From: Candidatus Paracaedimonas acanthamoebae
GTDB taxonomy: Bacteria > Pseudomonadota > Alphaproteobacteria > Caedimonadales > Caedimonadaceae
DNA length: 32,000 nt
NCBI GenBank assembly: GCA_000743035.1
Contig: CP008938.1
Coordinates: 39,043 to 71,042 of the forward strand
Direction of reading: 5' to 3'
In this document: positions 2,682 through 30,803 of the stretch, piece after piece
Layout: the number at the start of each line of letters is the position of its first letter
How positions within the stretch are numbered: position 1 is the stretch's first letter
Translations under genes and position numbers: made by a program
Notes under the pieces: model-generated
What the model was told of the DNA's origin: nothing
The model's database searches: none
Seen by the model: only the letters and a program-made list of their open reading frames with translations

Positions 2682-2976
2682 AATAGGTCCCCCAAATAAT
2701 GTTTCTTTAAGCTTAGTAACTCATTTCCTAAGCCACAGACAAGTTAGCAAGAATATGGGAAAGGTAGCTAGAATTAATTTCTAATTAACCAAAAACTTCT
2801 TACTCATCTTTGATATTATTGATTATGGGTTGCATATTATGTGATGCATATAAGATCTATAAACCCCCACTCCCTCTAGGAAATTTTCACGAATGTACCT
2901 TTATATAACGCATTTTGTGCTTTAAGGTCATATCCAGTACATGGGTTTATATTGCACCGACATGCCCACTAGGCTT

Positions 2977-15345: not shown

Positions 15346-17256
15346 TTAACCTATACTGCCAAGCTTATTAAGAGCTATCATAGTCAACTCCTCAAATTCT
15401 ACTCTATTTGAAATATCAATGTATTTACCTATGTATGGCTTAAGCTCATAAACATTCTGCATAGCTTCCCTATAAACTTCACGAGAGCTTACTACTGATT
15501 TTATTTGTCTTTGTTGTATGAGAGCTAAAATCTTCTTTTCTAGGCACTTTAGGTATACCGCCATCAATATATTAGGCTTGCTTATAATACGATCTGCAGC
15601 CTTAATAATCGATTTTGCATTTTCATCATTCTCTGGTAAACGAAACAAAAGCCTGCCATAAGATAAATTGTCTTCACTCAAGTCTTTCAAGTCTTTTCTC
15701 TTATCTTCTGTTATTTGCATGCTCTCTTCTCTATCTTTGATTAGCTTCAATAATATATACAGTGTGTGTTGTGTTGGATCACCATGCGGCTCATGAAGCA
15801 GAAATGCTAGCTGCATATAAATCTCAAGAGGTTCGATATTTCCATTTGCATACATTTGGAGAAGTTTTTCTGGCATACTATCTATAACTTCTCGAGGAGT
15901 ATCCGGAAGGTAAGTGCCTTTGGGTTGAGATGGCATTATTGCCTTTTCAATCCACATAAAGATAGCTTGGTTGTACCAAGCAGAATAGCGTTTTTCGCTA
16001 GTATGAAATTTAAAAGCATTTTTAAATAAAGATTCAAGATTATCCCCTTCCCGTAAATTCATAAGCGCTAACATGGAATACATTTCACAAGCCTTTAGTG
16101 AACTATGCTTGGGTTCTGTTATATGCTTTATGTGCAGATCATTAAGACTTAAGAAATGTGGATTATGTTCATCTGGTAAGTAAGATCCTTCTAATTTCAG
16201 AATATGTCCTTTCAAGAAATCAAAAACCACCGTTTCTTTCCGTACGCGCAACGACAATTTTTCTAATAAGTCTATCAATTCCTTCCTTGAGCATGAAAAT
16301 TCTTCTTTTTCTTTCTGCTCGTTATACTGATTATACATCGTAACAAGCTTCAAGCTCAGGTCAATTACCCTATTATAGAAATAAATTTCAAAGGAATGAT
16401 CTGTGGGGGGGCTTTCATTTATATCATACCATTGGTCATATCCATTCTTTTTATTTAACCTATCAAAAATCAGCGCATATAATGCTGTATTTTTACATTT
16501 ATATTTAAAATCATGTTTATATTTAAAAATTTCTCGAATTGTTTCCTTAGTTGCTTCTAAAATATTCTTTTTCTCTTCTCCGTGAAACAAATCCGGATAA
16601 GCTCTTTTAGGTGAAAGTGCACCATCTATCTCATTGTAATTCCCTCCCATATACAAGATATAGTCAATTATCTCTAATGGTAATTCTAACTCAAATGCCT
16701 CAAGAATATCCTGCTTACTTGAATCTGCTCTTTCTTCCTCATGCGGGTTTTTTAATAGGCTAGGAAAATTTCTTTCTTCTATTGCTGCTATAACCTGAGA
16801 AATTTTTGGTTCATTGAAGAGCTCAACGCTAATATTATCTAGGCTCTGTAATAAGACTTTAACATTTACATCTTCAACGTCGCTAAGATCCTTTAAAAGT
16901 TCTTTACCTTCTTGAAAATATCTGGCAGCCCATCTGAAAGAATTTAAAGCTTTGATAAGATAGTAATCCTTTTCCCGCATAAAAGTAGTGTTATCGATAG
17001 CCATTAATGAAGAATTATCAGATTTTAAGCTTTCCCCATTATCTATTGCTTTCCTCTTTTTAGATTTTGGGGACCTTGTAGCAATTTCGCATGATAATGC
17101 TGAGGTTTGTTCTTGAGATGATTTAAGCTCCATCTCTGCTTCGGAAGAGCCATCTACCATTGTCTTAAAAGTCTTCTTTTCTTCTTCTTCGCTTTGAGAA
17201 GCAGGGCATAAAAAGGTTATAAAAAAAGATAAGAAAATAATATTTAAATAATGCAT
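15346..17256 (-). CDS. Hypothetical 636-aa protein with Sec-type signal peptide; no recognisable domain
   Basis: Long uninterrupted ORF. N-terminus MHYLNIIFLSFFITFLCPASQS followed by an acidic/Ser-rich stretch. Confidence 0.7.
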   Translation of the reverse strand: MHYLNIIFLSFFITFLCPASQSEEEEKKTFKTMVDGSSEAEMELKSSQEQTSALSCEIATRSPKSKKRKAIDNGESLKSDNSSLMAIDNTTFMREKDYYLIKALNSFRWAARYFQEGKELLKDLSDVEDVNVKVLLQSLDNISVELFNEPKISQVIAAIEERNFPSLLKNPHEEERADSSKQDILEAFELELPLEIIDYILYMGGNYNEIDGALSPKRAYPDLFHGEEKKNILEATKETIREIFKYKHDFKYKCKNTALYALIFDRLNKKNGYDQWYDINESPPTDHSFEIYFYNRVIDLSLKLVTMYNQYNEQKEKEEFSCSRKELIDLLEKLSLRVRKETVVFDFLKGHILKLEGSYLPDEHNPHFLSLNDLHIKHITEPKHSSLKACEMYSMLALMNLREGDNLESLFKNAFKFHTSEKRYSAWYNQAIFMWIEKAIMPSQPKGTYLPDTPREVIDSMPEKLLQMYANGNIEPLEIYMQLAFLLHEPHGDPTQHTLYILLKLIKDREESMQITEDKRKDLKDLSEDNLSYGRLLFRLPENDENAKSIIKAADRIISKPNILMAVYLKCLEKKILALIQQRQIKSVVSSREVYREAMQNVYELKPYIGKYIDISNRVEFEELTMIALNKLGSIG

Positions 17257-17368: not shown

Positions 17369-17613
17369 AGGCCTAATGTGTACGTCCAGTCCTTTTTGGG
17401 ACAAGATTAGTTCCTCTTATATTATTGTAGTTGTCAAATGTAGGATTCAAGCCAAGTACGCGGTGTGAGAATTATCTCCGTATTATATGATATGATGCAT
17501 AATATACGGATTTTAAAGAACTTTGAATGAATACTTCAATTATATAATCTTCTGATTTAAAATGCTTTTTTGAGATGCTATCCCAAAAAGGACTGGACGT
17601 ACACATTAGGCCT
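17369..17613. mobile_element. MITE-like element bounded by perfect 33-bp terminal inverted repeats
   Basis: aggcctaatgtgtacgtccagtcctttttggga (17369-17401) is the exact reverse complement of 17581-17613. 179-bp AT-rich interior without a credible gene. Confidence 0.55.
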
Positions 17614-17791
17614 TTAGAAAGGCTTTGAATGATTTTTGACTTACCAAAAAACAACCCCGAAAATGACCGCTTGAATTTATCGGAAAAACAAGGGGCTATA
17701 AAAGCATGGTGAAGCAAAGCCTCTCAATCATTATCGTAGGTTCTTGTGGTACCTTACGTTCCTTGTATCTCTATAAGAGATCAGTATGTGA

Positions 17792-17883
17792 AGCTAATAT
17801 ACTGATAAAGGTAGAGAGAAGTCGTTACGTACCTTGTAGCTAATATACTGATAAAGGTAGAGAGAAGTCGTTACGTTCCTTGT
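17792..17883 (+). repeat. 46-bp tandem duplication (2 units, 1 mismatch) inside the IS110 5' non-coding region
   Basis: agctaatatactgataaaggtagagagaagtcgttacgt[a/t]ccttgt at 17792-17837 and 17838-17883. The unit end ttacgttccttgt also occurs at 17753-17765. Confidence 0.9.
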
Positions 17884-18032: not shown

Positions 18033-19007
18033 ATGCAAACCGCTCATGTTATTGGCCTTGATATATCTAAAAAGACGTTTGATGTTTGTACTATTTTTGA
18101 TGGAAAAATGAAGATTCATTCATTTTATAATAATAAAGCAGGCTATGAAGCATTCGTTTTATGGATTAAGAAATTTGATCTAATAAATCCCCATATTTGT
18201 ATGGAAGCCACAGGATCTTATTCAGAAGGTGTTGCTGAATTTTTATATAGTTTCGGTTATAAAGTCAGTATAATAAATCCGTTACAGATAAAATCCTTTA
18301 GGCTTAGTAAGATGATTCGTCAGAAAACAGATAAATCTGATTGTGAAGTCATTGCCATGTTTTGTTTGCAAAACTGTCCATCCCTATGGAATCCAAAGAG
18401 TCGAGAAAAGAAAGAATTACATGAAATCAATGCACGAATTGATGCTCTTAAAATGGAATTAAATAGGATAATCAATTTTCTCGAAAAAGAACTTTTAAAT
18501 AAAATCGTCATAAGATCAATAAAGGAAGAAATGCAATTTACTAAAGATATGATCGAAAAATTAGAACATGAAGCTTTGAATATTATCAAGAATTCACCAG
18601 TGATGAAAAAGCAATTTGATCATCTTACAGAAATAAAGGGTGTTGGCATAAAAACAGCCGTAACAATTTTAGCAGATATGCCTGATATCAACCATTTTAA
18701 GAATGCAAAACAGTATGCTGCTTTTGTGGGGGTAACCCCCTCTCATCTTCAATCCGGAACGTCTGTTAAAGGTAAATCCCACATCTCTAGACTTGGCTCC
18801 AAAAAAATTAGAAAAACTCTCTATATGGCCGCAGTTGTCATAAAAAACCACAATCCTCATTTTCAATTTCTTGTAAAACGTTTGGCCAGTAAGGGTAAAC
18901 CACCAAAGGTGATTATTGTGGCTATTATGAGAAAGTTACTACATATATTCTTTGGAATTCTTAAATATAATGAATCTTTTAATCAATATAAAGCTTTTCA
19001 ACCTTGA
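18033..19007 (+). CDS. IS110-family transposase/recombinase
   Basis: N-terminal VIGLDISKKTFDVC (DEDD RuvC-like) and C-terminal GVGIKTAVTILADMPDINHFKNAKQYAAFVGVTPSHLQSGTSVKGKSHISRLGSKKIRKTLYMAA (Transposase_20-type domain). Confidence 0.92.
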   Translation: MQTAHVIGLDISKKTFDVCTIFDGKMKIHSFYNNKAGYEAFVLWIKKFDLINPHICMEATGSYSEGVAEFLYSFGYKVSIINPLQIKSFRLSKMIRQKTDKSDCEVIAMFCLQNCPSLWNPKSREKKELHEINARIDALKMELNRIINFLEKELLNKIVIRSIKEEMQFTKDMIEKLEHEALNIIKNSPVMKKQFDHLTEIKGVGIKTAVTILADMPDINHFKNAKQYAAFVGVTPSHLQSGTSVKGKSHISRLGSKKIRKTLYMAAVVIKNHNPHFQFLVKRLASKGKPPKVIIVAIMRKLLHIFFGILKYNESFNQYKAFQP

Positions 19008-19040
19008 CTCCAAAGACGGTATCTTATGTAGATAGACCCT

Positions 19041-19196
19041 TACCTTAAGTAAAATCTACTTAAAATGAGCAATTAAGTGAATTCTACTTATGGGTTCTTT
19101 TCAATTTTTTCCGTAGTTTGATACTAATAAGGCGCATGCCTGATTAAGAAGCATTATTAAGCTTCTCTTATTTATCTTAGATTTAAGGAGGATTAC
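19041..19196 (+). promoter_or_regulatory. Leader/promoter module copy 1, with two TAAGTA-N5-TACTTA-type boxes, a conserved GC-rich box, a leader hairpin and an RBS
   Basis: Ungapped homology, about 85% (150/177 by hand count), between 19041-19217 and 23997-24173. Boxes at 19046-19062 and 19074-19090. RBS aaggagg. Confidence 0.7.
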
Positions 19197-20411
19197 ATGA
19201 AATTGAAATACTTAATGCTGCCTGTTATAACTTTTATTTATGTACACCAAGGAATGGCAAGCAATCCTTTAGAAAGTGAGCTTGAAAGAGAGGGTAATAG
19301 TGAAATTGTGGCCTATAGAACCATAAATTCCGTATTAGATGAAGAAACACTCAATTTTCAGGTTGAAACCCCTAAGTATTATTATATAAAAGCTGTCGCT
19401 CTACAAGATGAAGAACAAATGCAAGAGGCAATAGAATATTTTAAGCTAGCAGCTCACTCAGGTCATCATCGTGCTGCTTATATCTTGGCTCATTTCTATT
19501 TGGAGGGAAAATACTTAGAAAAATCTGCAGAAGAGGGAATGAAGTATCTTATTATGTCTAAAGATAGTGGAAACCTTGAAGCAAAACAGGAACTGGATTT
19601 TATTAGAAATTCAATAGATGAATTAACTGAATATTTGCCTGAATCAGGAATAATTAAAGGGTTACGTAAAGCAAGCTACGTAGCTAAAAAAGTTGAGAGT
19701 ATTACTTGGTGGCTACAATGTAGTGGTACAGGTCTTTATCACTTCTTAGACATTTTAGGATATAATAGTCAAGCAAGTTTTGTAGAAAATGGGTTACGAT
19801 ATAACCAAATGATTAATGGTGTAAGTAAGGTAGTTTATGGTGGAAGTGATTCAATCGTTTTTGGTAGACTTGAGCCACTTTTAACTAGTGGTCTTGGTGT
19901 CATTCAACTAGGAAGTATTTATCTGCAATCAGAAACCCTAAAACAACAAAAAAAATTAGAGTTAAAAGCTCAAAAATTGAAAAATTTAAAAAAAGAAAAT
20001 TCAGAAGACTATCCTTCTGAGTGGGAATCAATTTACCATGAAAAACAACAAAAGATAAAGGAAAAGAAAAAAGTATGTGATAATCAAATGATAGGTGTAA
20101 ATATTGCTGAAAATATTATGGGTACAACTCTTATAGCCTGGGCAGAAAATAAAGAAAGAAATTTTCTACAAGTTTTTCTGAATAGTGCATCAAAATGCTT
20201 TAAAGTATACGGCTATCAGATTATTTCTACAATCCTCAAGGAAACTCCAATTAAAGAAGTAGCAAAAAGAAAAGTGGGTAGCATTATTGACAATATCAGG
20301 AGTAATTTTAGTGAAGCACTTAATAGTAATTCTAATCTAGATAAAGTGTTTGATAAATTTAAAAACGAATTTTATGAGTATATTGATAGGCACGTAAGCA
20401 TGGCACCTTAA
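19197..20411 (+). CDS. Secreted/membrane Sel1-like-repeat protein
   Basis: Signal-like MKLKYLMLPVITFIYVHQGMAS. AIEYFKLAAHSGHHRAAYILAHFYLEGKYLEKSAEEGMKYLIMSKDSGNLEAK is a Sel1 (SLR) repeat pattern. Gly-rich hydrophobic central region and Lys-rich coiled coil. Confidence 0.75.
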   Translation: MKLKYLMLPVITFIYVHQGMASNPLESELEREGNSEIVAYRTINSVLDEETLNFQVETPKYYYIKAVALQDEEQMQEAIEYFKLAAHSGHHRAAYILAHFYLEGKYLEKSAEEGMKYLIMSKDSGNLEAKQELDFIRNSIDELTEYLPESGIIKGLRKASYVAKKVESITWWLQCSGTGLYHFLDILGYNSQASFVENGLRYNQMINGVSKVVYGGSDSIVFGRLEPLLTSGLGVIQLGSIYLQSETLKQQKKLELKAQKLKNLKKENSEDYPSEWESIYHEKQQKIKEKKKVCDNQMIGVNIAENIMGTTLIAWAENKERNFLQVFLNSASKCFKVYGYQIISTILKETPIKEVAKRKVGSIIDNIRSNFSEALNSNSNLDKVFDKFKNEFYEYIDRHVSMAP

Positions 20412-20427
20412 AAGGAATAGTTTAGAT

Positions 20428-20451
20428 GGCACCGTCTTATATGACGGTGCC
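20428..20451. terminator. Bidirectional hairpin terminator between convergent genes
   Basis: Perfect 9-bp GC-rich stem ggcaccgtc / gacggtgcc with a 6-nt loop, in the 96-nt gap between the stops at 20411 and 20508. Confidence 0.7.
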
Positions 20452-20507
20452 TATTAAAGAGTTGGACTAGAGGATTTTTATAAATATGGAAAGTGTTTAT
20501 CGTAAGT

Positions 20508-23500
20508 CTAATGCTTTTTAAAAAATTCAAGCTTAGCAAGTACCCTTAATAAATGAGGGGTTTTCTCTCCATAAGAAACTTTACCTAAGGAAAGGGCCTG
20601 CTGCAAGTTCTGTTCTGCTTTTTTGAGAAGAAGGCTTGATTGCAAAGGGCCTTTCCCTTGGGCTTTTTTGCGGTATAAATCTGCTAAGAGTTCATAATCC
20701 ATAAATTGCTCAGGGTGCGAACTGAGTTTAAAAATTGACAATGACCTGAACAATAAATTTTCTGAAGTTTCAAGTTGATTTTGAGCCATATAAAGGCATG
20801 CTAAAGCCCTTAATATACGGGCTGTTTCAATATGGTGAGTCCCATAGATTCTCTCATAATTCTTTAAGCTTTCTTGAAGATTCTTTTTTGCTAAATTTTG
20901 CCTTCCAGTTCCACAATATAAAATACCTAAATAATATTTGGCTAAAAAGATTGAGGAGTGTTGAGGTGGAAGATACTTTTGGCACTCTCCTAGAGCTTCT
21001 TTAAGCATAATTTCTGCTTCATGATAGCTTCCCATTTCTGTTAAAAGGTTTCCTATATGAAGAGAAAACCAAGCAATATCATCATGATTATCAGGAAGAT
21101 GTATTTGATGAAGCTTTTTCCCTTGTTGAAAGAGCTCTTGGGCTTTCTCATAATAGCCCAGTGCTTTATAAACTTTTCCGAGAAATCCTAAATTCCAACT
21201 AATCAGACGATAATGCTTTTTAAGAATCTTTTGAGTTTGTATATGGTAAGATTCTTCAAGAGAGTTTTTTGCAAGGAGGTAGTCTCCATTTTCTACATAA
21301 GCTTTGCCAAGCTTAATAAGGCTTGTTGAGATTCTTAAGTCATCCTTAGGCATATAGTTTTTTAAAAGAGCCACAGATTCTTTTAAATAATTAACACCAT
21401 CTTTATAGTGACCTAAGTATAGACTTACATCCCCTAAATGCTCAAGTGTCCAAGAAAGCCTCATATAATGGGTGGGAAACAGTGTACGATAAATCTCTAA
21501 ACCAGCTTGTACGTCACTTAAGGCAGCTTTATACTCTCCTAAACACTTTTTAACAATCCCTCTGTAGACAAGAATGTTGGCTTTCCTTAAGTCTATTTTA
21601 AGACATTCAGGCTTTATTTTTTTAGCATTTTTTAAAAGCTTGAGGCTCTTATTTAAAGTTTCAGTTGCCTTAGAATAAATGTTGAGTAAAAGGTAAAATC
21701 CTGACACCTGACACCCTAAATATCCTCTTTGCTCGTCTGTAAGCAAATTTGTGTGCTTTAAAAGGGCCTCTCCATGGTTCATTAGTTTCCTTATTTTAGC
21801 AAAATCTTCTTCGAGGACAGTGTCATAAATAAACTTCTCAAGAAACTCAGAAAGTATATATAATCTGGGGTCATTCAAAGTTAAGTTAAGCTTTTTTAAT
21901 AAATAAGCGCGCATCATTTCTTGAGTGCTGCGATGAATGGAGAATGTTGCAAGACCTTGAGATGAAGTATTATAACTAATTAAAGAATAATGGTGAAGAT
22001 CTTGGATGAAAGTATTAACCAAATCTTTGCTTTTATAACCTTCAAACAAAAATTTCGGTATTGCTTGTGAATCAATGAGTGTTAAAAGGATAAGAAAATC
22101 TTTAAAATCAGGGTGCTTTTGTAGCATTTTTTCAATAGAAAGTTTAATAATACTATAGCGGGTTTGATGATAATTTTGAGATGAGGTTAAGATCTCCTTA
22201 TGGCTTTGGGAAAGATTAGCTTCATCATGATAAAGAGCCCCAAGATATTCATTATAGCTTGCTTTTGTATTCTTTAAGTACTGAGCTGCAAGCGTGACAT
22301 CTAGAGGAAAGGGGGGGACTTGTTCTAAAAATACTTTTAAATCTTTGCGTTCTTCTAAGGTTTGCTCCTTTGAGCTGCTGTGAACCTTTGAGAATAAGTC
22401 TTCTCTTTCTTCAGGATTTAAAGCTGGGATTTGAAGGTGAGCATTAATATAAAGGCAATTTTGAATATTGCTGTTACGCGTTGTGAGGATCACTTTTCCA
22501 GGCCCCCATAAAGTAGCATCATAAGGAAAGTAATACTTAATGTCCGAGAATTGTTCAACATTGTCGTAAATTAAAATCCAATGAGGGTGTTGTTTGAGGC
22601 GATGCTTGACAAAACCTACCATTTTTTCTAAGCGTTTATAATCTTCTTTAATATCTTTTATTTGTTGGAGAAAGATTTTATCTTCTTCAGTGTGAATTAA
22701 GCTCTCAGCAAGGGTTTCAAAAGAACGAGAGAGATTTTCAGGGGTTTCTGCATTGAGTTCCCACACAAGAGATTCTTTATAAATGCGGGCATAGTGGCGA
22801 GCAAGAGTTGTTTTACCCATGCCCCCCATGCCAATAAGAGCTATAGTTTGAATTCCTTTTTGGCCTTTAAGGCTTTTATGCATATGAACCATTAAAACAG
22901 GGCGCTCTAAAAAAAAAGCAGGGGTTGGAATTGGAAGTTCTGATTGAATTTCTATCTTATGACGCTGCTTTAAAGGCCCATGGTAGAAGCCTTTAATAAA
23001 GTAAAACCCTGCTAAACTTATACCCAAAGCTCCTAGAAGAGAATAAGAAAACCCCTTAATGGATAACCAAGAGGAAAGAACAGATTTGTTTTTTCTAGAG
23101 GGTATAGTAGAAGAAAAAAAAGGGGGAGATTCAATTGATTGAGTATGAGCAATAAAGGATTCAGTTATTTTAGTGATATCTGCATGATTAGCAATCAACT
23201 TAATGATATCCAAAAATAAAGCATTTCTATTAAGGTAATGCTTGCACTCGACAGAAAGATAAGGAGAAGGAAGGATTCCTTCTTCAAGCAAATAAACACT
23301 TATTAATGAATAAGAGCTTGAAGCGCTTAAAAACTCTTTTTGTTCTTTTGTACTGAATAATCCTTTTAGAGTTTGGATGGGAAGAAAGTAAATAAGGCTT
23401 TGTATAGGCTGATTCTTTTGGAATTTAATATTTGGAAAAGGCTCATCTATTATAACAAGGGAAGTAATAAAGCCTGCTTGTTTGAGTGTTTCTTCTAAGG

Positions 23501-23933
23501 CTTTTAAGAAATAAGCCCTGTCTGAAATGTCTTCCTTCCATCCAACAATTTGAACAGCACCTTTATGAAAAGGAAGTCTTGCTATAATTTCTAAATTTTT
23601 TTCGAATTCTTTTAGCCAAGAAAGATAAAGATAAAACTTCTTAAGAGTAAAAATATGTGAAGTTTTTTCAATTAACGTGATAAGGCTCTCTTTGGAGTTA
23701 ACCTCAAGCTTTTTAAAAATATTATAAATATGAACTTCAATGGTACGAGGAGAGAGGGAGAGTAAAGCGCCAATTCCTTTGGGGGGCCTTCCATTCATAA
23801 GACAAGCAATGATTTCAATTTCTCGCCGAGTAAAGTGAACATTATGCAAAACTTGAAGTTGATGGATATAAATAAAATCTAGGATGTCTTTAAGGGAACT
23901 CTCAAAAATGTTTGAGGTTTTATTTTGCACCAA
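20508..23933 (-). CDS. STAND-class regulator: N-terminal LuxR/GerE HTH, hydrophobic segment, NB-ARC-type P-loop NTPase, C-terminal TPR array
   Basis: HTH FTRREIEIIACLMNGRPPKGIGALLSLSPRTIEVHIYNIFKKL. Hydrophobic FSYSLLGALGISLAGFYFIKGFY (aa ~295-317). Walker A IALIGMGGMGKTTLARHYA (nt ~22804-22840). ILIYDNVE Walker B-like. Multiple TPR-like YxxAxxxxxxAL repeats in the last ~400 aa. Non-ATG start (TTG 23933 or GTG 23930) behind an AAGGGAGA RBS. Confidence 0.85.
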   Translation of the reverse strand: MVQNKTSNIFESSLKDILDFIYIHQLQVLHNVHFTRREIEIIACLMNGRPPKGIGALLSLSPRTIEVHIYNIFKKLEVNSKESLITLIEKTSHIFTLKKFYLYLSWLKEFEKNLEIIARLPFHKGAVQIVGWKEDISDRAYFLKALEETLKQAGFITSLVIIDEPFPNIKFQKNQPIQSLIYFLPIQTLKGLFSTKEQKEFLSASSSYSLISVYLLEEGILPSPYLSVECKHYLNRNALFLDIIKLIANHADITKITESFIAHTQSIESPPFFSSTIPSRKNKSVLSSWLSIKGFSYSLLGALGISLAGFYFIKGFYHGPLKQRHKIEIQSELPIPTPAFFLERPVLMVHMHKSLKGQKGIQTIALIGMGGMGKTTLARHYARIYKESLVWELNAETPENLSRSFETLAESLIHTEEDKIFLQQIKDIKEDYKRLEKMVGFVKHRLKQHPHWILIYDNVEQFSDIKYYFPYDATLWGPGKVILTTRNSNIQNCLYINAHLQIPALNPEEREDLFSKVHSSSKEQTLEERKDLKVFLEQVPPFPLDVTLAAQYLKNTKASYNEYLGALYHDEANLSQSHKEILTSSQNYHQTRYSIIKLSIEKMLQKHPDFKDFLILLTLIDSQAIPKFLFEGYKSKDLVNTFIQDLHHYSLISYNTSSQGLATFSIHRSTQEMMRAYLLKKLNLTLNDPRLYILSEFLEKFIYDTVLEEDFAKIRKLMNHGEALLKHTNLLTDEQRGYLGCQVSGFYLLLNIYSKATETLNKSLKLLKNAKKIKPECLKIDLRKANILVYRGIVKKCLGEYKAALSDVQAGLEIYRTLFPTHYMRLSWTLEHLGDVSLYLGHYKDGVNYLKESVALLKNYMPKDDLRISTSLIKLGKAYVENGDYLLAKNSLEESYHIQTQKILKKHYRLISWNLGFLGKVYKALGYYEKAQELFQQGKKLHQIHLPDNHDDIAWFSLHIGNLLTEMGSYHEAEIMLKEALGECQKYLPPQHSSIFLAKYYLGILYCGTGRQNLAKKNLQESLKNYERIYGTHHIETARILRALACLYMAQNQLETSENLLFRSLSIFKLSSHPEQFMDYELLADLYRKKAQGKGPLQSSLLLKKAEQNLQQALSLGKVSYGEKTPHLLRVLAKLEFFKKH

Positions 23934-23996
23934 AAAATAGGTCTCCCTTAGCCTAAGTTTATTTGCTCAACTTTAATAAATATTTTTCTGCCTGTC

Positions 23997-24152
23997 TACC
24001 TTAAGTACAATCTACTTAAAAGCTGTAATTAAGTAGATTGTACTTATAGGTGTTTTTCGCTTTCTTACGTAGTCTGACCCTAATAAGGCGCATGCCTGAT
24101 TAAGAAGCATCATAAAGCTTCTTTTGTTTATCACATATTTAAGGAGAATTAC
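23997..24152 (+). promoter_or_regulatory. Leader/promoter module copy 2, in the divergent intergenic region between the STAND gene and the coiled-coil/patatin operon
   Basis: Boxes TAAGTAcaatcTACTTA (24002-24018) and TAAGTAgattgTACTTA (24030-24046) together form an 18-bp-arm inverted repeat. Conserved ctaataaggcgcatgcctgattaagaagcat. Hairpin 24102-24123. RBS aaggaga. Confidence 0.7.
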
Positions 24153-24872
24153 ATGAAATTAAAATACTTAATGATTACAACTTCAATTCTACTAGGTACT
24201 GGCCAAGTATTTGCAAGTTCACACTTTGATGCTGAAGCTGAAGAATCTTATCGAAGCCAATCAAGAACCAGAAGCACAGAGTCAAGATCTTATATGGAAT
24301 ATGACATTAAAGAACTTGAAGCACTTGCTCAAAAACTAGCCGTTATAAAAAAAATTAAGGAAACAGAAGCCGAACTTCCTCTGATAGCAGCTTTAGCTTC
24401 TGATAGAATTAAAGAAATAAAATATAGAGAAGAGAAAAGGGAAGAAGAGCTGCAGCAGCAAAAAATAAATACTGAAGGAATTCGTAATAAAATTGAACAA
24501 GATAAAATAATAGCATTCAACAAAAGCAAAATGGAGGCAGCACAAATACAAGCAAAAGTAATCAGCATTTTGAGTGAAACAGAGGTAAAGGTAGAAGGTA
24601 AGAGAATTGCTAATATGCGGAAAGCACGCAAGTTGCAAATGGATAAGGTAATATCAGAAGAAAGCATGGTTGGTACTCTATGGAGTGGTCTTTTTGGGAG
24701 AAAAATTGAGGATGGTGATATTTATGGTCAAATAGCAGCAGATAGAGAGAGTCAAGCCAAAGAGAAAAAGAAAATGCAAGAATATTTTTCGGGAATGTTG
24801 TCAATAGAGGCCCCTCAGAAAACTATTGGATCAATTACAAGATCAGGCCCTCGTATTGAAGAGTTAGATTAA
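24153..24872 (+). CDS. Secreted coiled-coil protein (239 aa), first gene of a three-gene operon
   Basis: Signal MKLKYLMITTSILLGTGQVFASS. Charged heptad-like sequence (EEKREEELQQQK...). Strong RBS. Confidence 0.75.
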   Translation: MKLKYLMITTSILLGTGQVFASSHFDAEAEESYRSQSRTRSTESRSYMEYDIKELEALAQKLAVIKKIKETEAELPLIAALASDRIKEIKYREEKREEELQQQKINTEGIRNKIEQDKIIAFNKSKMEAAQIQAKVISILSETEVKVEGKRIANMRKARKLQMDKVISEESMVGTLWSGLFGRKIEDGDIYGQIAADRESQAKEKKKMQEYFSGMLSIEAPQKTIGSITRSGPRIEELD

Positions 24873-24881
24873 GGTATAGTC

Positions 24882-25589
24882 ATGAAGGTAATATATAATA
24901 TTCTTAAATGCGCCCTTATATGTATATGTCTTCATGGTTTTTGGTCTTTCAGTTCATTAGCCAGTAATCCGGCTGATGAACTGGAATTATTTGGCCAGAA
25001 ACACAGACGTTGGGTAAATAGGGGTCGAAACCAGGCTTCACAACCCTTAAAGGGCAAAAAAGACAATCATCAAGAAGAATTAAGAAGAATTAAAAAAGAT
25101 TTGATGACGAGATTGTTAAGTGTCTCTCAAGAAATTCTTGAGCAAAAAATAAGTGAAAATCATTTTACCCCAACACAACGAAATGTTGAGACATTACTTA
25201 CATACGACCTACAACAGCTCAAATCTATATTAACTTACGAAGAGGAAAGGACAAAAATTATATTAAGTATTTTAAAGCAGAGGAATATATTCATAGATAT
25301 AAAAGAGCAAGAAGAACAAATTCATTTTCAAGTTCTTTTAAGGGAGCAAATGGAAAATGCTTGTAAATTTTATCAAAAGAAATTCGAGATGTATAAAACA
25401 AGATGTGAAGAGCAAGAAAAGAGAATTCAATCACAAATGATGCGAATTTTAAAGACTGAAGCTAGCAAGTTACTTAGTAATGTTCACACGAAAATGTTAG
25501 AAGTTGAAGTTGATAATCTTAGGGAAGAGATAAAATCAAAAGAAAAAATAATTGAAGAGCATGACAAAAGCAATTGCTTGTTACAATAG
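24882..25589 (+). CDS. Signal-peptide/membrane-anchored coiled-coil protein (235 aa)
   Basis: Starts 9 nt after the upstream stop. N-terminus MKVIYNILKCALICICLHGFWSFSSLAS. The remainder is Glu/Lys/Gln-rich helical sequence. Confidence 0.72.
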   Translation: MKVIYNILKCALICICLHGFWSFSSLASNPADELELFGQKHRRWVNRGRNQASQPLKGKKDNHQEELRRIKKDLMTRLLSVSQEILEQKISENHFTPTQRNVETLLTYDLQQLKSILTYEEERTKIILSILKQRNIFIDIKEQEEQIHFQVLLREQMENACKFYQKKFEMYKTRCEEQEKRIQSQMMRILKTEASKLLSNVHTKMLEVEVDNLREEIKSKEKIIEEHDKSNCLLQ

Positions 25590-25606
25590 AAATTAGGAGT
25601 ATTATT

Positions 25607-27292
25607 ATGAAAAATATTCATATTGTTAAATATTGTATGGTTTTACCATGTATAATATTAAATTTATATCATCCTGCGAGATCTTCGGGAGTGCCTAAGA
25701 TGGATATTGAATCATATCGCCCTAACTTAACAATTAATTACTTTAATATAAATACAAGCTTAGAGCAGCTTGAGGGCCAACGAAAAAGGCTAGAAGAGCA
25801 ATACCAAATGGCTTTAGATGAAAACCATAAAACTATATCTCTGTTAGAGAGAGAAGATAAAGAAAAAGAGGCACAGTTTCAAAGCAAACTTAATGAGCTT
25901 CGTAAGGAAACTCAAGAATATTATAGAAAAAGTATGTTTTTAAAAAGTGATAGGCAACAAAGAGAAGCAGAGCAACAAAGGAAACTCTTGCGTGTGAGAG
26001 ATTATGCTGAAAAAATAATAACTATTAGTCAAGATGAGGTAGATCAAACCAAAAGCATCCTTGATAATTTAGAGCAGCGCCTACAGATAGAGACTTATTT
26101 AAGTCCTTCTCTTATTTCTCCTATAGAAAACTTGAAAAGAATATTGGTCGGGACTAACCCTATTGATGCTAATCCTACTGCCCTTGTGAGACAAATAAAA
26201 TACAAAACACACCAACAAAGAGACCAAATCTTAGAAGAATATGAAGATCTGGAATTAGATTTTCGAAGAAATAGTGTTAAAAGCCTTGAGAGACCCTTCT
26301 ATTATGGTCTGTCCTTAGATGGGGGCGGTATTAGAGGGTTAAATCTTTGTCTCTGCTTGGAAGAAATAGAAAGGGTTACAGGTAAAAAAATAGCCGAATT
26401 ATTTGATTTTATAGGAGGGACATCGATTGGGGGGATTATAGCTCTAGGGCTAACTATAGGAGAATATCAAAGCCCCTACTATTCTGCTAATCATTTTAGT
26501 GAGCTATTATACAATCATAGCAAGAATATTTTCCCAAGGGAAAAAAAATTAGATCTAGTAACAAGCACATTCTATACGTTTAAAGATCTTTTCTGGTCAG
26601 CTCGTTATTCTGCGGCTCCTTTACGAGGTTTATTAGAGAGTTCCTTTTACGAAGCGCGTCTAAGCCAGGCTATTAAGCCTGTCCTTACAACAGCAGTTCA
26701 TGCAGTTGACAATTCTCTACTTTTTAAAAGAGCACAGACTTTTGAAAGCTTGGAAGCACTTGCAGATGACAATAATGATTTCTTAATTGTTGACGTTGGA
26801 CTTGCAACTTCTGCGGCTCCAACTTTTTTCCCTGCAGCTGAAGTATGGAATATCAAACGCACTAGAGCAATGAATCTTGTGGATGGCGGACTATGGTATA
26901 ATAATCCTTCACAATTAGTTTATAATAGAATGATGAATCATTTTAACTGTAGTGTTGAAAATATGATGCTAGTTTCGATAGGAACTGGAAAAGCATCAGG
27001 AGCTTCTAGCTCAGCTTTACCTAAAAGTGCTTCTTTGCTAAGGGCAGCTAAACCTACTATTGAGGCTATGATAATGGCCAATACCGAAGGTGTGCATGAA
27101 GAAATGTCTAGAATAAAAAACTTGAATTATCATAGAATTCAGCCGTTCTTAGAAAGAGATATTCAATTAGACGATGCTTCAGAGGATGCTTTAGAAGTCC
27201 TTAAGCTTGCTGCTGCAAGCCAATATAGAGAGATTAAGCCAATAGCAAAAACCTTATTAAAAAACTACGATTTTAAGAAGGATATATTATAA
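25607..27292 (+). CDS. Patatin-like phospholipase with hydrophobic N-terminus and ~230-aa coiled-coil extension
   Basis: GLSLDGGGIRG (oxyanion hole), GGTSIGG (GxSxG nucleophile), LVDGGLWYNNP (catalytic Asp). The start is set at ATG 25607 behind an AGGAG RBS. The listed 25574 start overlaps the upstream gene. Confidence 0.88.
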   Translation: MKNIHIVKYCMVLPCIILNLYHPARSSGVPKMDIESYRPNLTINYFNINTSLEQLEGQRKRLEEQYQMALDENHKTISLLEREDKEKEAQFQSKLNELRKETQEYYRKSMFLKSDRQQREAEQQRKLLRVRDYAEKIITISQDEVDQTKSILDNLEQRLQIETYLSPSLISPIENLKRILVGTNPIDANPTALVRQIKYKTHQQRDQILEEYEDLELDFRRNSVKSLERPFYYGLSLDGGGIRGLNLCLCLEEIERVTGKKIAELFDFIGGTSIGGIIALGLTIGEYQSPYYSANHFSELLYNHSKNIFPREKKLDLVTSTFYTFKDLFWSARYSAAPLRGLLESSFYEARLSQAIKPVLTTAVHAVDNSLLFKRAQTFESLEALADDNNDFLIVDVGLATSAAPTFFPAAEVWNIKRTRAMNLVDGGLWYNNPSQLVYNRMMNHFNCSVENMMLVSIGTGKASGASSSALPKSASLLRAAKPTIEAMIMANTEGVHEEMSRIKNLNYHRIQPFLERDIQLDDASEDALEVLKLAAASQYREIKPIAKTLLKNYDFKKDIL

Positions 27293-27578: not shown

Positions 27579-28460
27579 TTAAAGATCCAGATTTAAGTTT
27601 GTATTTTGGTTAGTATTTCCTCCATTATTATAGGTATGAATCTTTTGGTTTTGTGTTTGTGTATTTGAAGAGCGGATGCGGGCAAGAGGAGCTGGAGGTT
27701 TATATCCTAATGATGAGTGAGGTCTTATATGATTATAATGCTGCCGCCATTCTTCTATAAGCACTTGAGCTTCTTTTAGACTATAAAATACTTCTCCATT
27801 GAGAAGTTCATCTCTCAATTTTCCATTAAAGCTTTCATTGTAGCCATTCTCCCAAGGTGAACCTGGCTCTATGTAAGCTGTCTTAACATTTAAGCTCTTG
27901 AGCCACTCTTTAAGAATTTGGGCTTTAAACTCACTGCCATTATCGGAGCGAATATGCTCAGGGATCCCTTCTTGAATAAATAAATCACTTAAGATATCGA
28001 GAATATCATTTGATGTTAAGTGATACCCAACCCTGATAGCTAAACATTTCCTTGTATATTCATCTATGACTGTGAGAAGTCGGATCTTTTTGCCATTTGC
28101 AAGGCGTTCCGCCACAAAATCATAACTCCAAACATGATTCGGCCAGCAAGGTTTTAACCTCAAACAAGAACCATCATTAAGATAGAGTCTTCCTTTTTTG
28201 GACTGTCTTTGTGGTACTTTAAGACCTTCTTCTCGCCAAATACGTTCAACCCTCTTATGATTGATATGCCAGCCTTCTATTTTAAGCAGAGCATGAATCC
28301 GACGATAACCATATCTTCCATAACGAGTTGTTAACCTAATAATAGCTGCTCTTAACGCTTCCTCATCATCTTCTTGTTTAGAGCAATATCTCAGCACCGA
28401 ACGATGAATCTCCAAAACCTCACAGACACGCCTTTGGGAGATCCCAAACTTCTGTTGCAT
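27579..28460 (-). CDS. IS3-family transposase OrfB (rve/DDE integrase core), expressed as an OrfAB fusion by -1 frameshift
   Basis: WSYDFV...LTVIDEYTR...[10 protein letters not shown]...[20 protein letters not shown]...[12 protein letters not shown]. The OrfB frame is open upstream to the slippery site and is -1 relative to orfA. Confidence 0.92.
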
Positions 28461-28492
28461 CTTAATGGCACATTGCCGCTGTCGCTCGGTGC

Positions 28493-28768
28493 TTAAAAGT
28501 TTCCCTCTGCAGCTTCTTTCAATATAAGCTTATCCAAAGTAAGATCGGCAACAGCTCTTTTTAACCGAGCATTCTCTCGCTCAAGCTCCTTAAGCCTTCT
28601 TGCTTGATTAACCTTCAAGCCCCCATAAACCTTACGCCATTTATAATAAGTTGCATCCGAGATCCCTAATTGACGACACACCTCAATGATACTCTTGCCT
28701 TGAGATAACAAAACATTACTCTGGCGTAATAACCCTATAATTTGCTCCGCTCCATAGCTCTTCTTCAT
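28493..28768 (-). CDS. IS3-family transposase OrfA (HTH)
   Basis: [16 protein letters not shown]...[21 protein letters not shown]...[18 protein letters not shown] (HTH plus leucine zipper). The start is set at the second ATG behind a GGAGGAGG RBS. The slippery G_GGA_AAC lies at 28499-28505, in frame 0, just before the stop. Confidence 0.9.
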
Positions 28769-29510
28769 AATAGCCTCCTCCATTCAATCAATCTCGCTAT
28801 ACTAACTAAAAACTGGAGCTATTATAGGGAGGAAGGTCACTTTTAATCTTGTTTAGATTTTGTACCATCATTATAATCTCCATTGTCATCAGTGTTATTG
28901 ACAAACCTGAGAGAGGTAGCCGCCTCTCTTAGGTCTTTCATAAGAAGATCACCGTGATCTTCTTATTTTGTTGCTGCTCAAAACTTTTGGTCTCTTGCAG
29001 TAACACCTTGATCATGCGAGATTATTTAGCTGTAAAATATTAGGGAAATATTCGTAAGGGGAATACCCTTAAGGGTATTAAAATTTGGCTTGTTTGATGC
29101 CTAATAGTCAGGCATCCTAGCTTAAATATAGATTTTTATGTAAAAATACGGTTTTGATACTGTGTTAAGGATCAAGTATTATTCTTAAGGGTTTGAGGGT
29201 TAAAGGCTGTTTTATATTTCAGCACCCCGAAGCATATGTGAAAAAGCTTTCTTATATTTGGTCTCCAAGTCTACTCCCTTATCTCAAAGTTGGAGTAGAA
29301 CCAGAAAACTAACTCCAGGCTAATTATTAAAATTTATAGTTAACTTTAAGGCAATTAAAATGTATTTCTTGTTGCCTAGGTAATTAAATAGTTATGATTT
29401 ATCCTAAAAGAACCTGCAATCGTACTTAATTGCAGTATACCTGAGAACCGAGATTTAATTACTAATTATTTAATTATAAATAAAATAAGTTAGCGTATGG
29501 AGAACTTGAG

Positions 29511-30803
29511 TTGAAAATACATTTTTTCATGTCTTTGTCTTTTATTTTTCTTTCACTCAATACTTGTGTTTATGGATCAATTGACTTAACGGAATATATC
29601 CCAAAACCTAAAGTACGCCACATAACAAGACATACTCCTCAAGCAAAATTACAGAAGAGTTACAAAAAAATGCGCAAAAATATGCATCTTGATGAATTAA
29701 AAGAGCGTGCTGAAAATTTTAAAGAGCGTATTTATGACCCTGTTGATATGGATAATATTGGAGATCAGACAGAGTACATCTCTACTTTAAGAGATTTAAA
29801 AAAGAGGTTAGATAAAGTTCATCCTATTTTAGTACCTTACTTTGAAGATCACATAGACGAAATAGATAATAGGCTGGATTTAGCAAGACTTGACGTGCAA
29901 ATTTTTAATAGAAGAGGGGTGCGAGGAAGTTTTAATCACCCGCTCATCCCACAAAATGTCCAAACTTCTTTGAGTAGCATTGTAGGAAAGATTTTTCACA
30001 TAACTCAAGAAGAGGAGGAACCAGAGGATGTCATGGATATTGGCAGTGGTATAATGGTTAAGCTCACAAATGGGAAGCCTTCCAATATTAAAAATGGTGA
30101 TATACTAAATGGTGTTATGTCATGCGCCCATGTTTTTGAAGCAGGAGATGATGAACATTTAGTCGGTGTTTATTTTGTCGCTCATGAGCATCTCAATCCA
30201 ATAACAGGGTTGCCAGAAGACCAAATAAATCCTGTCAATTCAGCACAAAACTTAATGCAATATTTAAGAACAAATCCAAATTCATATGAAATTAATCTTT
30301 ACAGTATTAAAAGAAGAACAAACCCTATTTCTATAATTGAAGGAAATAATGTAAATGCCACCAATCCTCAATATTGGAGCAATGAAGACATTATTTTTGG
30401 AACATTTAAAACAGTAGCGCATCTTTATAGTCACAATACGAGAATTAAGTTTAATACCATTACAGCTGATACCCCCTTCAAAATAACAAAAAGAAGAAAG
30501 CCTTATTTTGCAGCAGGGTACCCAGGGTGCTCACACTATAATAAAAGGAAATTTAAAGGAGATGCCAATTATTCTCTTATAAAGGAAATAGGCTTATCTC
30601 CACTTCATATAACCTCTGCTTTGCCTAAGTATCACAAAGGAGTTTTAAAAAGGCCACTTCTAAAGGATGGAAGAATCCTACATGAGGCTCCTGCTGCAAA
30701 AGGAATGAGTGGCGGCCCGCTTTTTAGAGTTAAGAATACAAAAGTAAAAATATTTGGCTGTATAACTTCGGGAGAAGATGGAGAAGAAGAAGGTTGTTAT
30801 TAA
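29511..30803 (+). CDS. Secreted trypsin-like (S1-type) serine protease with ~170-aa N-terminal extension
   Basis: TTG start behind a GGAGAA RBS. Signal MKIHFFMSLSFIFLSLNTCVYGS. Triad candidates His in MSCAHVFE, Asp in NEDIIFG and Ser in KGMSGGPLF. Acidic C-terminal tail. Confidence 0.78.
   Translation: MKIHFFMSLSFIFLSLNTCVYGSIDLTEYIPKPKVRHITRHTPQAKLQKSYKKMRKNMHLDELKERAENFKERIYDPVDMDNIGDQTEYISTLRDLKKRLDKVHPILVPYFEDHIDEIDNRLDLARLDVQIFNRRGVRGSFNHPLIPQNVQTSLSSIVGKIFHITQEEEEPEDVMDIGSGIMVKLTNGKPSNIKNGDILNGVMSCAHVFEAGDDEHLVGVYFVAHEHLNPITGLPEDQINPVNSAQNLMQYLRTNPNSYEINLYSIKRRTNPISIIEGNNVNATNPQYWSNEDIIFGTFKTVAHLYSHNTRIKFNTITADTPFKITKRRKPYFAAGYPGCSHYNKRKFKGDANYSLIKEIGLSPLHITSALPKYHKGVLKRPLLKDGRILHEAPAAKGMSGGPLFRVKNTKVKIFGCITSGEDGEEEGCY

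Follow-up and report, generated by a model that had tools for sequence, protein, structure and literature searches.

We analysed a 32,000-nucleotide stretch of DNA (hereafter the window; contig CP008938.1, positions 39,043 to 71,042) that belongs to a plasmid of 169 kb. The bacterium that carries it, Candidatus Paracaedimonas acanthamoebae (formerly Caedibacter), lives as a symbiont in the cytoplasm of Acanthamoeba and has a genome of 1.7 Mb and five plasmids (PMC11909080; PMC4198247). The window encodes a STAND-LuxR regulator, 100% identical to IM40_10715, and genes for exported proteins on both sides of it. We think it probable, if only just, that this protein is a membrane-anchored one-component regulator of the STAND (NB-ARC) type, which binds palindromic boxes in the flanking DNA and drives the exported-protein genes. 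What we infer in this reading is that the protein binds DNA and that it activates rather than represses, together with its topology, the nature of the cue and the part that it plays in the host. An earlier sequence-only reading of the same DNA had proposed a sensor-to-secretome switch, and overall our results support it in part: the helix-turn-helix (HTH) domain, the boxes and the exported genes are as it described them, while its soluble cytoplasmic sensor is put in doubt by a conserved predicted transmembrane helix that it overlooked, and by which the NB-ARC and tetratricopeptide repeat (TPR) part is predicted to lie outside the cytoplasm.

We propose that the TPR region would bind a cue, with release of autoinhibition, and that the NB-ARC domain would then exchange nucleotide and oligomerize. 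Oligomerization would join the HTH domains at the cytoplasmic face of the inner membrane, where they would occupy paired palindromes of the form TTAAGTA-N5-TACTTAA, and the outcome would be activation of a Sel1-like gene and of a unit that encodes two small proteins and a patatin. The second box pair lies upstream of the regulator's own gene too, and activation of this gene is probable. The output would be a set of Sec-exported proteins, a patatin phospholipase among them, whose most plausible role is in the interaction with the amoeba host. Switching by inducer and ATP is established for the STAND transcription activators MalT, GutR and AfsR (PMC10936776).

Domain architecture and predicted topology of the regulator

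The regulator and its parts are as follows.
20508..23933, minus strand: STAND-LuxR regulator IM40_10715, 1141 aa (open reading frame (ORF), Pfam, AlphaFold)
23676..23834, minus strand: GerE/LuxR-type HTH, residues 34-86, recognition helix SPRTIEVHIYNIFKKL (Pfam GerE, 51 bits, cut-off 23.5)
23130..23558, minus strand: alpha/beta flavodoxin-like domain of unknown family, residues 126-268 (AlphaFold)
22986..23051, minus strand: predicted single transmembrane helix, residues 295-316, FSYSLLGALGISLAGFYFIKGF (hydropathy analysis; lone AlphaFold helix)
21894..22901, minus strand: NB-ARC nucleotide switch, residues about 345-680 (Pfam NB-ARC, alignments, Foldseek)
20511..21869, minus strand: TPR sensor region of the kinesin-light-chain type, residues about 689-1141 (Pfam TPR_12, 102 bits, and TPR_10; PDB matches to KLC1/2)

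The protein belongs to the NB-ARC (AP-ATPase) clade of STAND proteins and to the LuxR/GerE class of HTH proteins. Its AlphaFold model has a mean predicted local distance difference test score of 87 and places, in order, the HTH (residues 14-119), the alpha/beta domain (126-268), a disordered linker, a lone helix (296-316), a disordered stretch, the NB-ARC domain and the TPR region. The HTH fold is matched in Foldseek by the DNA-binding domains of NarL (including the NarL-DNA complex 1je8), DegU, VraR and LiaR at a root-mean-square deviation of 0.7-1.6 A. The NB-ARC domain scores 44 bits in Pfam (cut-off 23.5; residues 352-580) and is matched by Apaf-1, CED-4 and RPP1 (5juy, 4m9s, 7dfv, 9cc8) with a Foldseek probability of 1.00. 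It carries a P-loop (GMGGMGKTT, 368-376), a Walker B motif (LIYDNV), a TTR sensor motif (T484-T485), a GLPL-like FPLD motif (P543-L544-D545) and an MHD-like H667, and these switch motifs are invariant or nearly so in alignments of 26 and 62 sequences. For the alpha/beta domain, by comparison, neither Pfam nor Foldseek (at E <= 0.001) gives a match; it is confidently modelled and weakly resembles B12-binding domains and a 'cryptic TIR'. The N-terminal LuxR-HTH, NB-ARC and TPR composition had been recognized by the sequence-only reading, which had also given the positions and strands of five genes just as they appear in our ORF list.

The predicted transmembrane helix is a property of the family. 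Our hydropathy survey covered 217 family representatives, 189 of which have an HTH, and 198 proteins entered the charge statistics; signal-peptide and topology calls followed simple hydropathy rules. A single hydrophobic segment of about 20 residues lies between the HTH region and the P-loop in 177 of the 189 HTH-bearing proteins. Across the 198 proteins the uncharged stretch has a median length of 20 residues, the median distance from its start to the P-loop is 75 residues, and the segment is kept in position and in hydrophobicity, with Kyte-Doolittle (KD) values up to 3.3, but not in sequence. The charges around it follow a positive-inside bias: the 15 flanking residues contain on average 3.95 lysines and arginines on the N-terminal side vs 2.38 on the C-terminal side, and the N-terminal flank is the richer one in 154 of the 198 proteins and the poorer one in 16 (Wilcoxon p 2e-24).

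Two kinds of variants bear on how the helix divides the protein. In three family members (P0050, P0060 and P0071) a TIR domain replaces the LuxR HTH, and the single helix about 75 residues before the P-loop is retained; the N-terminal output domain is therefore swappable, as it is in nucleotide-binding leucine-rich repeat receptors (NLRs). The second kind is an NB-ARC/TPR homologue, 33% identical over 769 residues, from a Holosporales metagenome-assembled genome (MAG; GCA_017307085.1, our locus L079), which has an N-terminal signal peptide and lacks both the HTH and the internal hydrophobic segment. Since export of a 290-residue N-terminal part without a signal peptide is hardly conceivable, a single span is workable only if the HTH lies inside and the NB-ARC/TPR part outside. 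Thus, on the basis of the charge bias and the signal-peptide variant, we predict a ToxR-like bitopic layout, in which a cytoplasmic HTH is joined by one transmembrane helix to an NB-ARC/TPR part outside the cytoplasm. On L079 (4368-15258) this gene adjoins genes for two patatins and three trypsin-like exported proteins, and a stretch of the N-terminal region of its product (residues 60-200) shares 47% identity with the C-terminal part of the trypsin-like protein encoded next to it. The alpha/beta domain of the window regulator, with its NYY..F.ILK motif, also occurs in this variant.

The family so far has been seen only in protist-endosymbiont-like alphaproteobacteria. The NB-ARC part alone retrieves 870 clusters (50% identity) at E <= 1e-30, and the sources that bear a name are without exception Holosporales, Paracaedibacteraceae or similar MAGs. 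Our literature search found no paper describing this regulator family, the Paracaedimonas genome papers and a Holosporales review mention neither LuxR nor NB-ARC, and an exact look-up of the paralogue P0038 and of the Sel1-like protein returned nothing on record. The family is real and apparently undescribed, a variant of the STAND transcription factors.

Some observations speak against the predicted topology. Of all the family's segments, that of the window protein is the weakest (KD 1.58); its flanks are equally charged (4 vs 4), and the protein is one of about 12 of the 189 HTH-bearing homologues that fall under the hydropathy threshold. Moreover, since all switch motifs of the NB-ARC domain are conserved, the domain should need nucleotide wherever it is located, which for an outer domain implies a need for nucleotide outside the cytoplasm, contrary to the usual rule in bacteria. 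One possible way round this problem, which we offer as conjecture, is that these bacteria live in the cytosol of their hosts.

We can take this thought one step further, tentatively, to a reading that we hold to be possible though well short of probable: the periplasmic NB-ARC/TPR part may constitute a transmembrane, NLR-like receptor that acts as a switch run by host ATP and reports the interior of the host cell, or that responds to a host or envelope ligand bound by the TPR region. Where a symbiont lies free in the host cytosol and imports host ATP, host nucleotides could reach its periplasm; oligomerization would then act across the membrane and drive the cytoplasmic HTH domains, or the TIR domains in the variants.

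The opposite view, that the regulator is a soluble cytoplasmic STAND-LuxR protein in which the helix serves as an oligomerization or peripheral membrane element and a cytoplasmic cue switches the flanking genes via the boxes, seems to us unlikely. It has in its favour that the known STAND transcription factors MalT, GutR and AfsR are all cytoplasmic and require ATP (PMC10936776), as well as the full conservation of the nucleotide-binding motifs and the weak, symmetrically flanked segment of the window protein itself. However, it does not account for the retention of about 20 uncharged residues, some strongly hydrophobic, with a strong positive-inside bias across 198 homologues, nor for the isolation of the helix between disordered linkers in the AlphaFold model, nor for the signal peptide that the L079 homologue has instead.

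If the NB-ARC/TPR part is indeed a periplasmic, NLR-like receptor, the many members of this family would be extracytoplasmic STAND ATPases that have defined operators and regulons of exported effectors. STAND and NLR proteins have been treated as cytoplasmic switches, and a layout in which a membrane anchor splits a DNA-binding head from its NB-ARC/TPR body would be new to signalling. Such an arrangement suggests that an intracellular bacterium may couple extracytoplasmic sensing to gene expression in a new way, and if the outer location holds, ATP-dependent switching outside the cytoplasm and host sensing by obligate intracellular bacteria become testable questions. The predicted regulator, operator and target genes moreover lie together on one 8-kb piece, which is rare for uncultured symbionts and testable in E. 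coli.

Palindromic boxes as putative operators

The elements of the leader regions are listed below, together with the other candidate signals of the intergenic DNA.
19041..19196, plus strand: leader module copy 1, 5' of the Sel1-like gene (direct repeat D1)
19045..19063: box 1 of copy 1, TTAAGTAAAATCTACTTAA (perfect 7-5-7 palindrome)
19073..19091: box 2 of copy 1, TTAAGTGAATTCTACTTAT (2 mismatches; starts 28 nt after the start of box 1)
23997..24152, plus strand: leader module copy 2, lying between the divergent STAND gene and three-gene unit (direct repeat D1)
24001..24019: box 1 of copy 2, TTAAGTACAATCTACTTAA (motif search)
24029..24047: box 2 of copy 2, TTAAGTAGATTGTACTTAT (motif search; forms a 23-bp inverted repeat with box 1)
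23970..23998, minus strand: sigma-70-like promoter candidate of the STAND gene, TAGACA-17-TAAAGT, abutting box 1 of copy 2 (consensus match only)
19147..19166, plus strand: terminator-like hairpin in the 5' leader, copy 1, AGAAGC-loop-GCTTCT (terminator scan, folding)
24102..24123, plus strand: leader hairpin, copy 2 (terminator scan, folding)
20428..20451, no strand: GC-rich hairpin ggcaccgtc-ttatat-gacggtgcc between the convergent Sel1-like and STAND genes (read from sequence; absent from the terminator scan list)

The same leader stands before both plus-strand units. Direct repeat D1 (19041-19217 vs 23997-24173) is 177 nt long, 85% identical and extends into the first seven codons (MKLKYLM) of the genes that follow. 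Each copy contains two 19-bp palindromes of the form TTAAGTA-N5-TACTTAA whose starts are 28 nt apart, and the distance from the box pair to the start codon is 107 nt for both units. When up to two mismatches are allowed, this motif has five matches in the 32 kb, namely the four leader boxes and an A/T-rich site at 29455-29473.

Comparison with other genomes points to the palindromes as sites for the regulator. Its closest non-identical homologue (P0002, 54% identity) is encoded on the metagenomic contigs L003-L005. On L003 the P0002 gene is followed by the box pair CTAAGTACAATCTACTTAG and ATAAGTATGTTTACTTAG, and a gene for a 95-aa signal-peptide protein starts 111 nt further on; outside the box pair the leader has diverged from that of the window. 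For a family-wide scan we took 65 homologue loci from genome collections, 62 of which had enough sequence upstream of the regulator gene. A 7-5-7 palindrome of the form nTAnGnn-N5-nnCnTAn lies upstream of 18 of these 62 regulator genes from other genomes, mostly at -139 to -186 from the start of the HTH model, which corresponds to about 70-115 nt before the start codon. The background expectation is 0.34 genes (binomial p 3e-26), and in shuffled sequences the mean was 0.4 and the highest count 3. When orthologues from different MAGs are compared in groups, the box forms a conserved island in intergenic DNA that is otherwise diverged, and it is the half-sites that are conserved, not the spacers.

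The half-sites furthermore vary with the recognition helix of the regulator next to them.
PRT[IV]EVHIYN: half-site TAAGTA (window, L003)
PKTVETHTYN: half-site TAAGGA or TAAGTA (L008, L011)
PRTVETHLRN: half-site CTACGGG (L010)
RTVETHIRN: half-site CTACGTA (L012, L020, L030)
PKTIEAHMRN: half-site CTAAGGG (L016, L024, L033, L053)

Judged by these comparisons, the palindromes behave like putative operators of the regulator's HTH, for which we infer DNA binding. The sequence-only reading had seen the shared leader with its paired palindromes and had suggested the boxes as operators; the first point is confirmed and the second supported: the boxes are kept with the 54% homologue, recur upstream of other homologues and appear to track the recognition helix. 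Three features of the data count against this assignment. The box definition was generalized after the first matches had been seen, the tandem paralogue arrays L010 and L020 are not independent and inflate the counts, and 44 of the 62 homologues have no box under the definition used. To these may be added that a sigma-70 promoter scan of the region gave no more matches than were found in shuffles, and our promoter assignments are guesses.

Orthologues with the CTAAGGG box (L024, L033 and L053) are flanked by a divergently encoded protein of 191-198 aa without a Pfam match and, downstream, by a radical-SAM protein. This cargo, unlike the exported effectors, may represent a small-molecule or peptide pathway.

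It is conceivable, yet to our minds improbable, that the boxes are not operators at all and that the leader is a duplicated or gene-converted promoter fragment whose box pair is a hairpin, a cruciform, a target for insertion sequences (ISs) or the end of a mobile element. The copy-2 pair does fold as a hairpin, perfect over 23 bp (-27.2 kcal/mol, z -7.0), box 1 is bordered at its 5' edge by insertion elements or rearrangements in two strains, and the first seven codons common to the two leaders suggest duplication. However, the long hairpin is kept neither in copy 1 (z -2.6) nor in L003, and since the half-sites are conserved all the same, protein sites are favoured over a nucleic-acid structure. 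Single boxes at a fixed distance 5' of homologous regulators in many genomes, varying with the recognition helix, also argue for operators. A metagenome scan for the box pair returned only the known relative (L076, identical to L004) and four unrelated or tandem-repeat matches; it revealed no dispersed copies, and no further members of the regulon.

We likewise see little likelihood that the boxes serve autoregulation only, through the box nearest the regulator start, with other factors controlling the flanking exported-protein genes. As this explanation would have it, most homologues have a single box about 70-115 nt 5' of the regulator's own start codon, and in the window the box at 24001-24019 abuts the promoter-like site of the STAND gene. 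In contrast, leader copy 1 has no adjoining regulator gene and yet keeps both boxes at 107 nt from a start codon, and the L003 pair lies downstream of the regulator and upstream of the secreted-protein gene, with no box in the 166 nt before the regulator itself.

The conserved leader hairpin, placed 5' of the ribosome-binding site and 3' of the likely promoter, may contribute attenuation or stabilize the RNA. Strain L001 preserves its stem by other sequence (AGCAGC/GCTGCT); tested by folding alone, the leader hairpins were not significant (z -1.1 to -1.4). Rfam and tRNA scans of the window found nothing, and thus the leader is no known riboswitch or RNA.

Exported-protein genes and the surrounding plasmid

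The putative target genes are the following.
19197..20411, plus strand: exported 404-aa protein with a weak Sel1-like repeat, signal peptide MKLKYLMLPVITFIYVHQGMA (Sel1 23 bits, below the 30.7 cut-off)
24153..24872, plus strand: exported 239-aa protein, first gene of the unit (no Pfam match; 100% identical on two other assemblies)
24882..25589, plus strand: exported 235-aa protein, second gene (no Pfam match)
25607..27292, plus strand: patatin-like phospholipase, 561 aa, ORF 25574/25607-27292 (Pfam Patatin 74 bits, cut-off 27.7)

All four products begin with signal-peptide-like sequences. The last of them is, by its sequence, a patatin-like phospholipase with an intact set of catalytic motifs, its translation containing DGGGIRG (the GGGxRG oxyanion box), GGTSIGG (the GxSxG serine) and VDGG (the DGG aspartate); the signal peptide is followed by an N-terminal extension of about 230 aa and a CapV-like catalytic domain (residues 235-548). 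Patatin-like phospholipases are among the genes exchanged between amoeba symbionts and have been linked to virulence (PMC5751055). The Sel1-like protein has weak tblastn matches to a 17-repeat Sel1 protein that adjoins a STAND-LuxR gene in L020.

The association with exported proteins extends to other loci. Among the neighbours of STAND-LuxR genes, 28 of 85 encode signal-peptide proteins vs 83 of 455 (odds ratio 2.2, p 0.003, with a crude predictor), and they include the 17-repeat Sel1 protein and a papain-like protease. Homologues of the two small proteins (CC1 and CC2) and of the patatin were also sought beside the 65 STAND-LuxR loci and were found in none outside the same species, and we therefore rejected a conserved patatin/coiled-coil neighbourhood. 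An acidic stretch after the signal peptide, considered as a mark of neighbours that are ligands of the TPR region, was dropped (p 0.08 vs other signal-peptide proteins). A unit of two small signal-peptide proteins and an N-terminally extended patatin recurs elsewhere, in L077 (1717-4687, near TraD) and in L078 (1419-5291, divergent from an ordinary 265-aa LuxR-type regulator); neither of these operons has a TAAGTA-type box.

In these respects the sequence-only reading fared unevenly. It was right that the flanking genes encode secreted proteins, the patatin included, and its patatin label is secure; the Sel1 label is weak, and the two proteins that it called coiled-coil have no Pfam match. Of the co-occurrence that it envisaged across genomes, the link with the box motif is supported, and the patatin/coiled-coil genes do not accompany the homologues; only exported neighbours in general are enriched. 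Its suggestion of an Avs-like defence role found no support.

It is very improbable that the block is an Avs- or CBASS-like abortive-infection module, in which the STAND protein senses phage and a CapV-like patatin destroys the membrane. The similarities are real, and the closest solved relatives of the patatin are CapV proteins, effectors of CBASS defence, which counts against our main reading; the patatin is matched by the phospholipase effectors of PADLOC (7e-56) and by the NCBIfam model CBASS_lipase (181 bits), phage sensing is common among STAND NTPases (PMC13581612), and the family has TIR-bearing variants. Yet the CBASS_lipase score lies under the cut-off of 200, no PADLOC model matches the STAND protein above noise (PtuA 5.9e-4, CARF 4.4e-3), Pfam scans of 18 window ORFs of at least 100 aa, smaller ORFs being unscanned, gave no cyclase of the CD-NTase type, signal peptides are present on the patatin and on both of its partners, the STAND protein has an HTH and no effector as its output domain, and the family has been seen only in protist-endosymbiont-like alphaproteobacteria, which few phages can reach.

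The block is bounded on both sides by insertion elements, and a remnant of a second module lies to its right.
18033..19007, plus strand: IS110-family transposase, left boundary of the block (Pfam DEDD_Tnp_IS110 and Transposase_20)
27579..28783, minus strand: IS3-family element with orfA and orfB, bounding the block on the right (orfB, 27579-28460, matches Pfam rve, rve_3 and HTH_21)
28840..29072, no strand: remnant of a second such module, with a variant box (87-88% identity of 28840-29027 to DNA upstream of two STAND-LuxR paralogues)

The same block is found in two other assemblies at 98.7% identity, on contigs that end at IS110 and IS3 elements. The sequence-only reading took it for a self-contained mobile block, which our comparison does not bear out: the IS110 and IS3 flanks belong to separate families and show no common ends, so that movement of the block as a unit lacks support, and in strain L001 homology to the window begins only at 19045, the DNA 5' of box 1 being different. 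At this edge of copy-1 box 1 (19040-19045) the window has the IS110 element vs the start of an unrelated minus-strand gene in L001 (1-218), and the box region may be a hot spot for insertion or recombination.

The paralogues whose upstream regions match the remnant belong to L010, a Caedibacter MAG. The left side of this second module is cut by the IS3 element, a variant box, GTAAGGGGAATACCCTTAA, lies 3' of the matching stretch at 29054-29072, and to the right follows a gene for a 430-aa signal-peptide protein (29511-30803) with a serine-protease-like GMSGGP motif. The GTAAGGGGAATACCCTTAA box type fits recognition helices of the form PKTIE.H.RN, and the paralogue IM40_09675 (P0038), encoded on another plasmid, carries such a helix. 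The second module may therefore be a target of another paralogue, for example IM40_09675.

The window also encodes a type IV coupling protein, a 2402-aa MobA/TraA-like relaxase, TraD, ProQ/FinO, UmuDC and a resolvase, which makes it an accessory part of a conjugative plasmid; a PLSDB search with the plasmid returned no match. Several other features were noted in passing. A perfect 33-nt inverted repeat around 179 nt (17369-17613) resembles a miniature inverted-repeat transposable element, a 46-nt tandem duplication (17789-17880) lies just 5' of the IS110 transposase gene and possibly in the non-coding left end of the element, and a 159-nt direct repeat with 91% identity (1688-1846 vs 2975-3133) has one copy that overlaps the 3' end of the relaxase gene. 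To the left of IS110, a 636-aa signal-peptide protein (15346-17256, minus strand) has no family match and no box upstream of its gene.

Comparison with known systems

Among established regulators, MalT and its LAL relatives and GutR of Bacillus subtilis resemble the window protein in being STAND transcription activators that depend on an inducer and on ATP (PMC10936776). MalT further shares the LuxR-type HTH and a TPR-like sensor. The order of the parts is different, however: in MalT and the LAL proteins the HTH is C-terminal and the ATPase is of the MalT clade, whereas here the HTH is N-terminal. The NCBIfam MalT model accordingly gives 23.5 bits against a cut-off of 537 and covers the HTH only. 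We know of no membrane anchor in either MalT or GutR.

AfsR of Streptomyces has the same succession of an N-terminal DNA-binding domain, a central nucleotide-binding oligomerization domain of the NB-ARC type and C-terminal TPRs, and ATP binding controls its activation (PMC10936776). It differs in its DNA-binding domain, which is a SARP domain there and a LuxR/GerE HTH here; the window regulator has no SARP or BTAD match in Pfam, and it scores 22.7 bits with the NCBIfam AfsR model (cut-off 1430). To our knowledge, AfsR has no such alpha/beta domain and no transmembrane helix. Because the domain order or the DNA-binding domain differs and the curated models fail, we rejected membership of the regulator in either MalT/LAL or AfsR/SARP.

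The Avs and bNACHT proteins of phage defence share a STAND core, a repeat sensor and a swappable N-terminal output domain, and the family studied here has TIR-bearing relatives. In contrast to them, the window STAND protein has no PADLOC match, its output domain is an HTH with putative cognate operators, and its neighbours are exported. STAND proteins with transmembrane segments, and a predicted periplasmic NACHT protein (Thiohalocapsa), have been mentioned in passing (10.1101/2022.07.19.500537; 10.1101/2023.09.22.558884). The CapV effectors of CBASS are most similar to the window patatin in its catalytic domain (235-548), where the GGGxRG, GxSxG and DGG motifs are all present. They differ from it in that the window protein remains under the NCBIfam cut-off, has a signal peptide and a 230-residue N-terminal extension, and has no cyclase beside it among the scanned ORFs.

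ToxR, CadC and TcpP match the predicted layout, with an N-terminal cytoplasmic DNA-binding domain, one transmembrane helix and a C-terminal extracytoplasmic sensor; the likeness is one of layout only and implies no homology. These proteins have an OmpR-type winged helix and small periplasmic domains, whereas here a LuxR-type HTH would be combined with an outer NB-ARC/TPR part of 800 residues. By prediction, then, the regulator would follow the logic of AfsR, GutR and MalT in the layout of ToxR or CadC.

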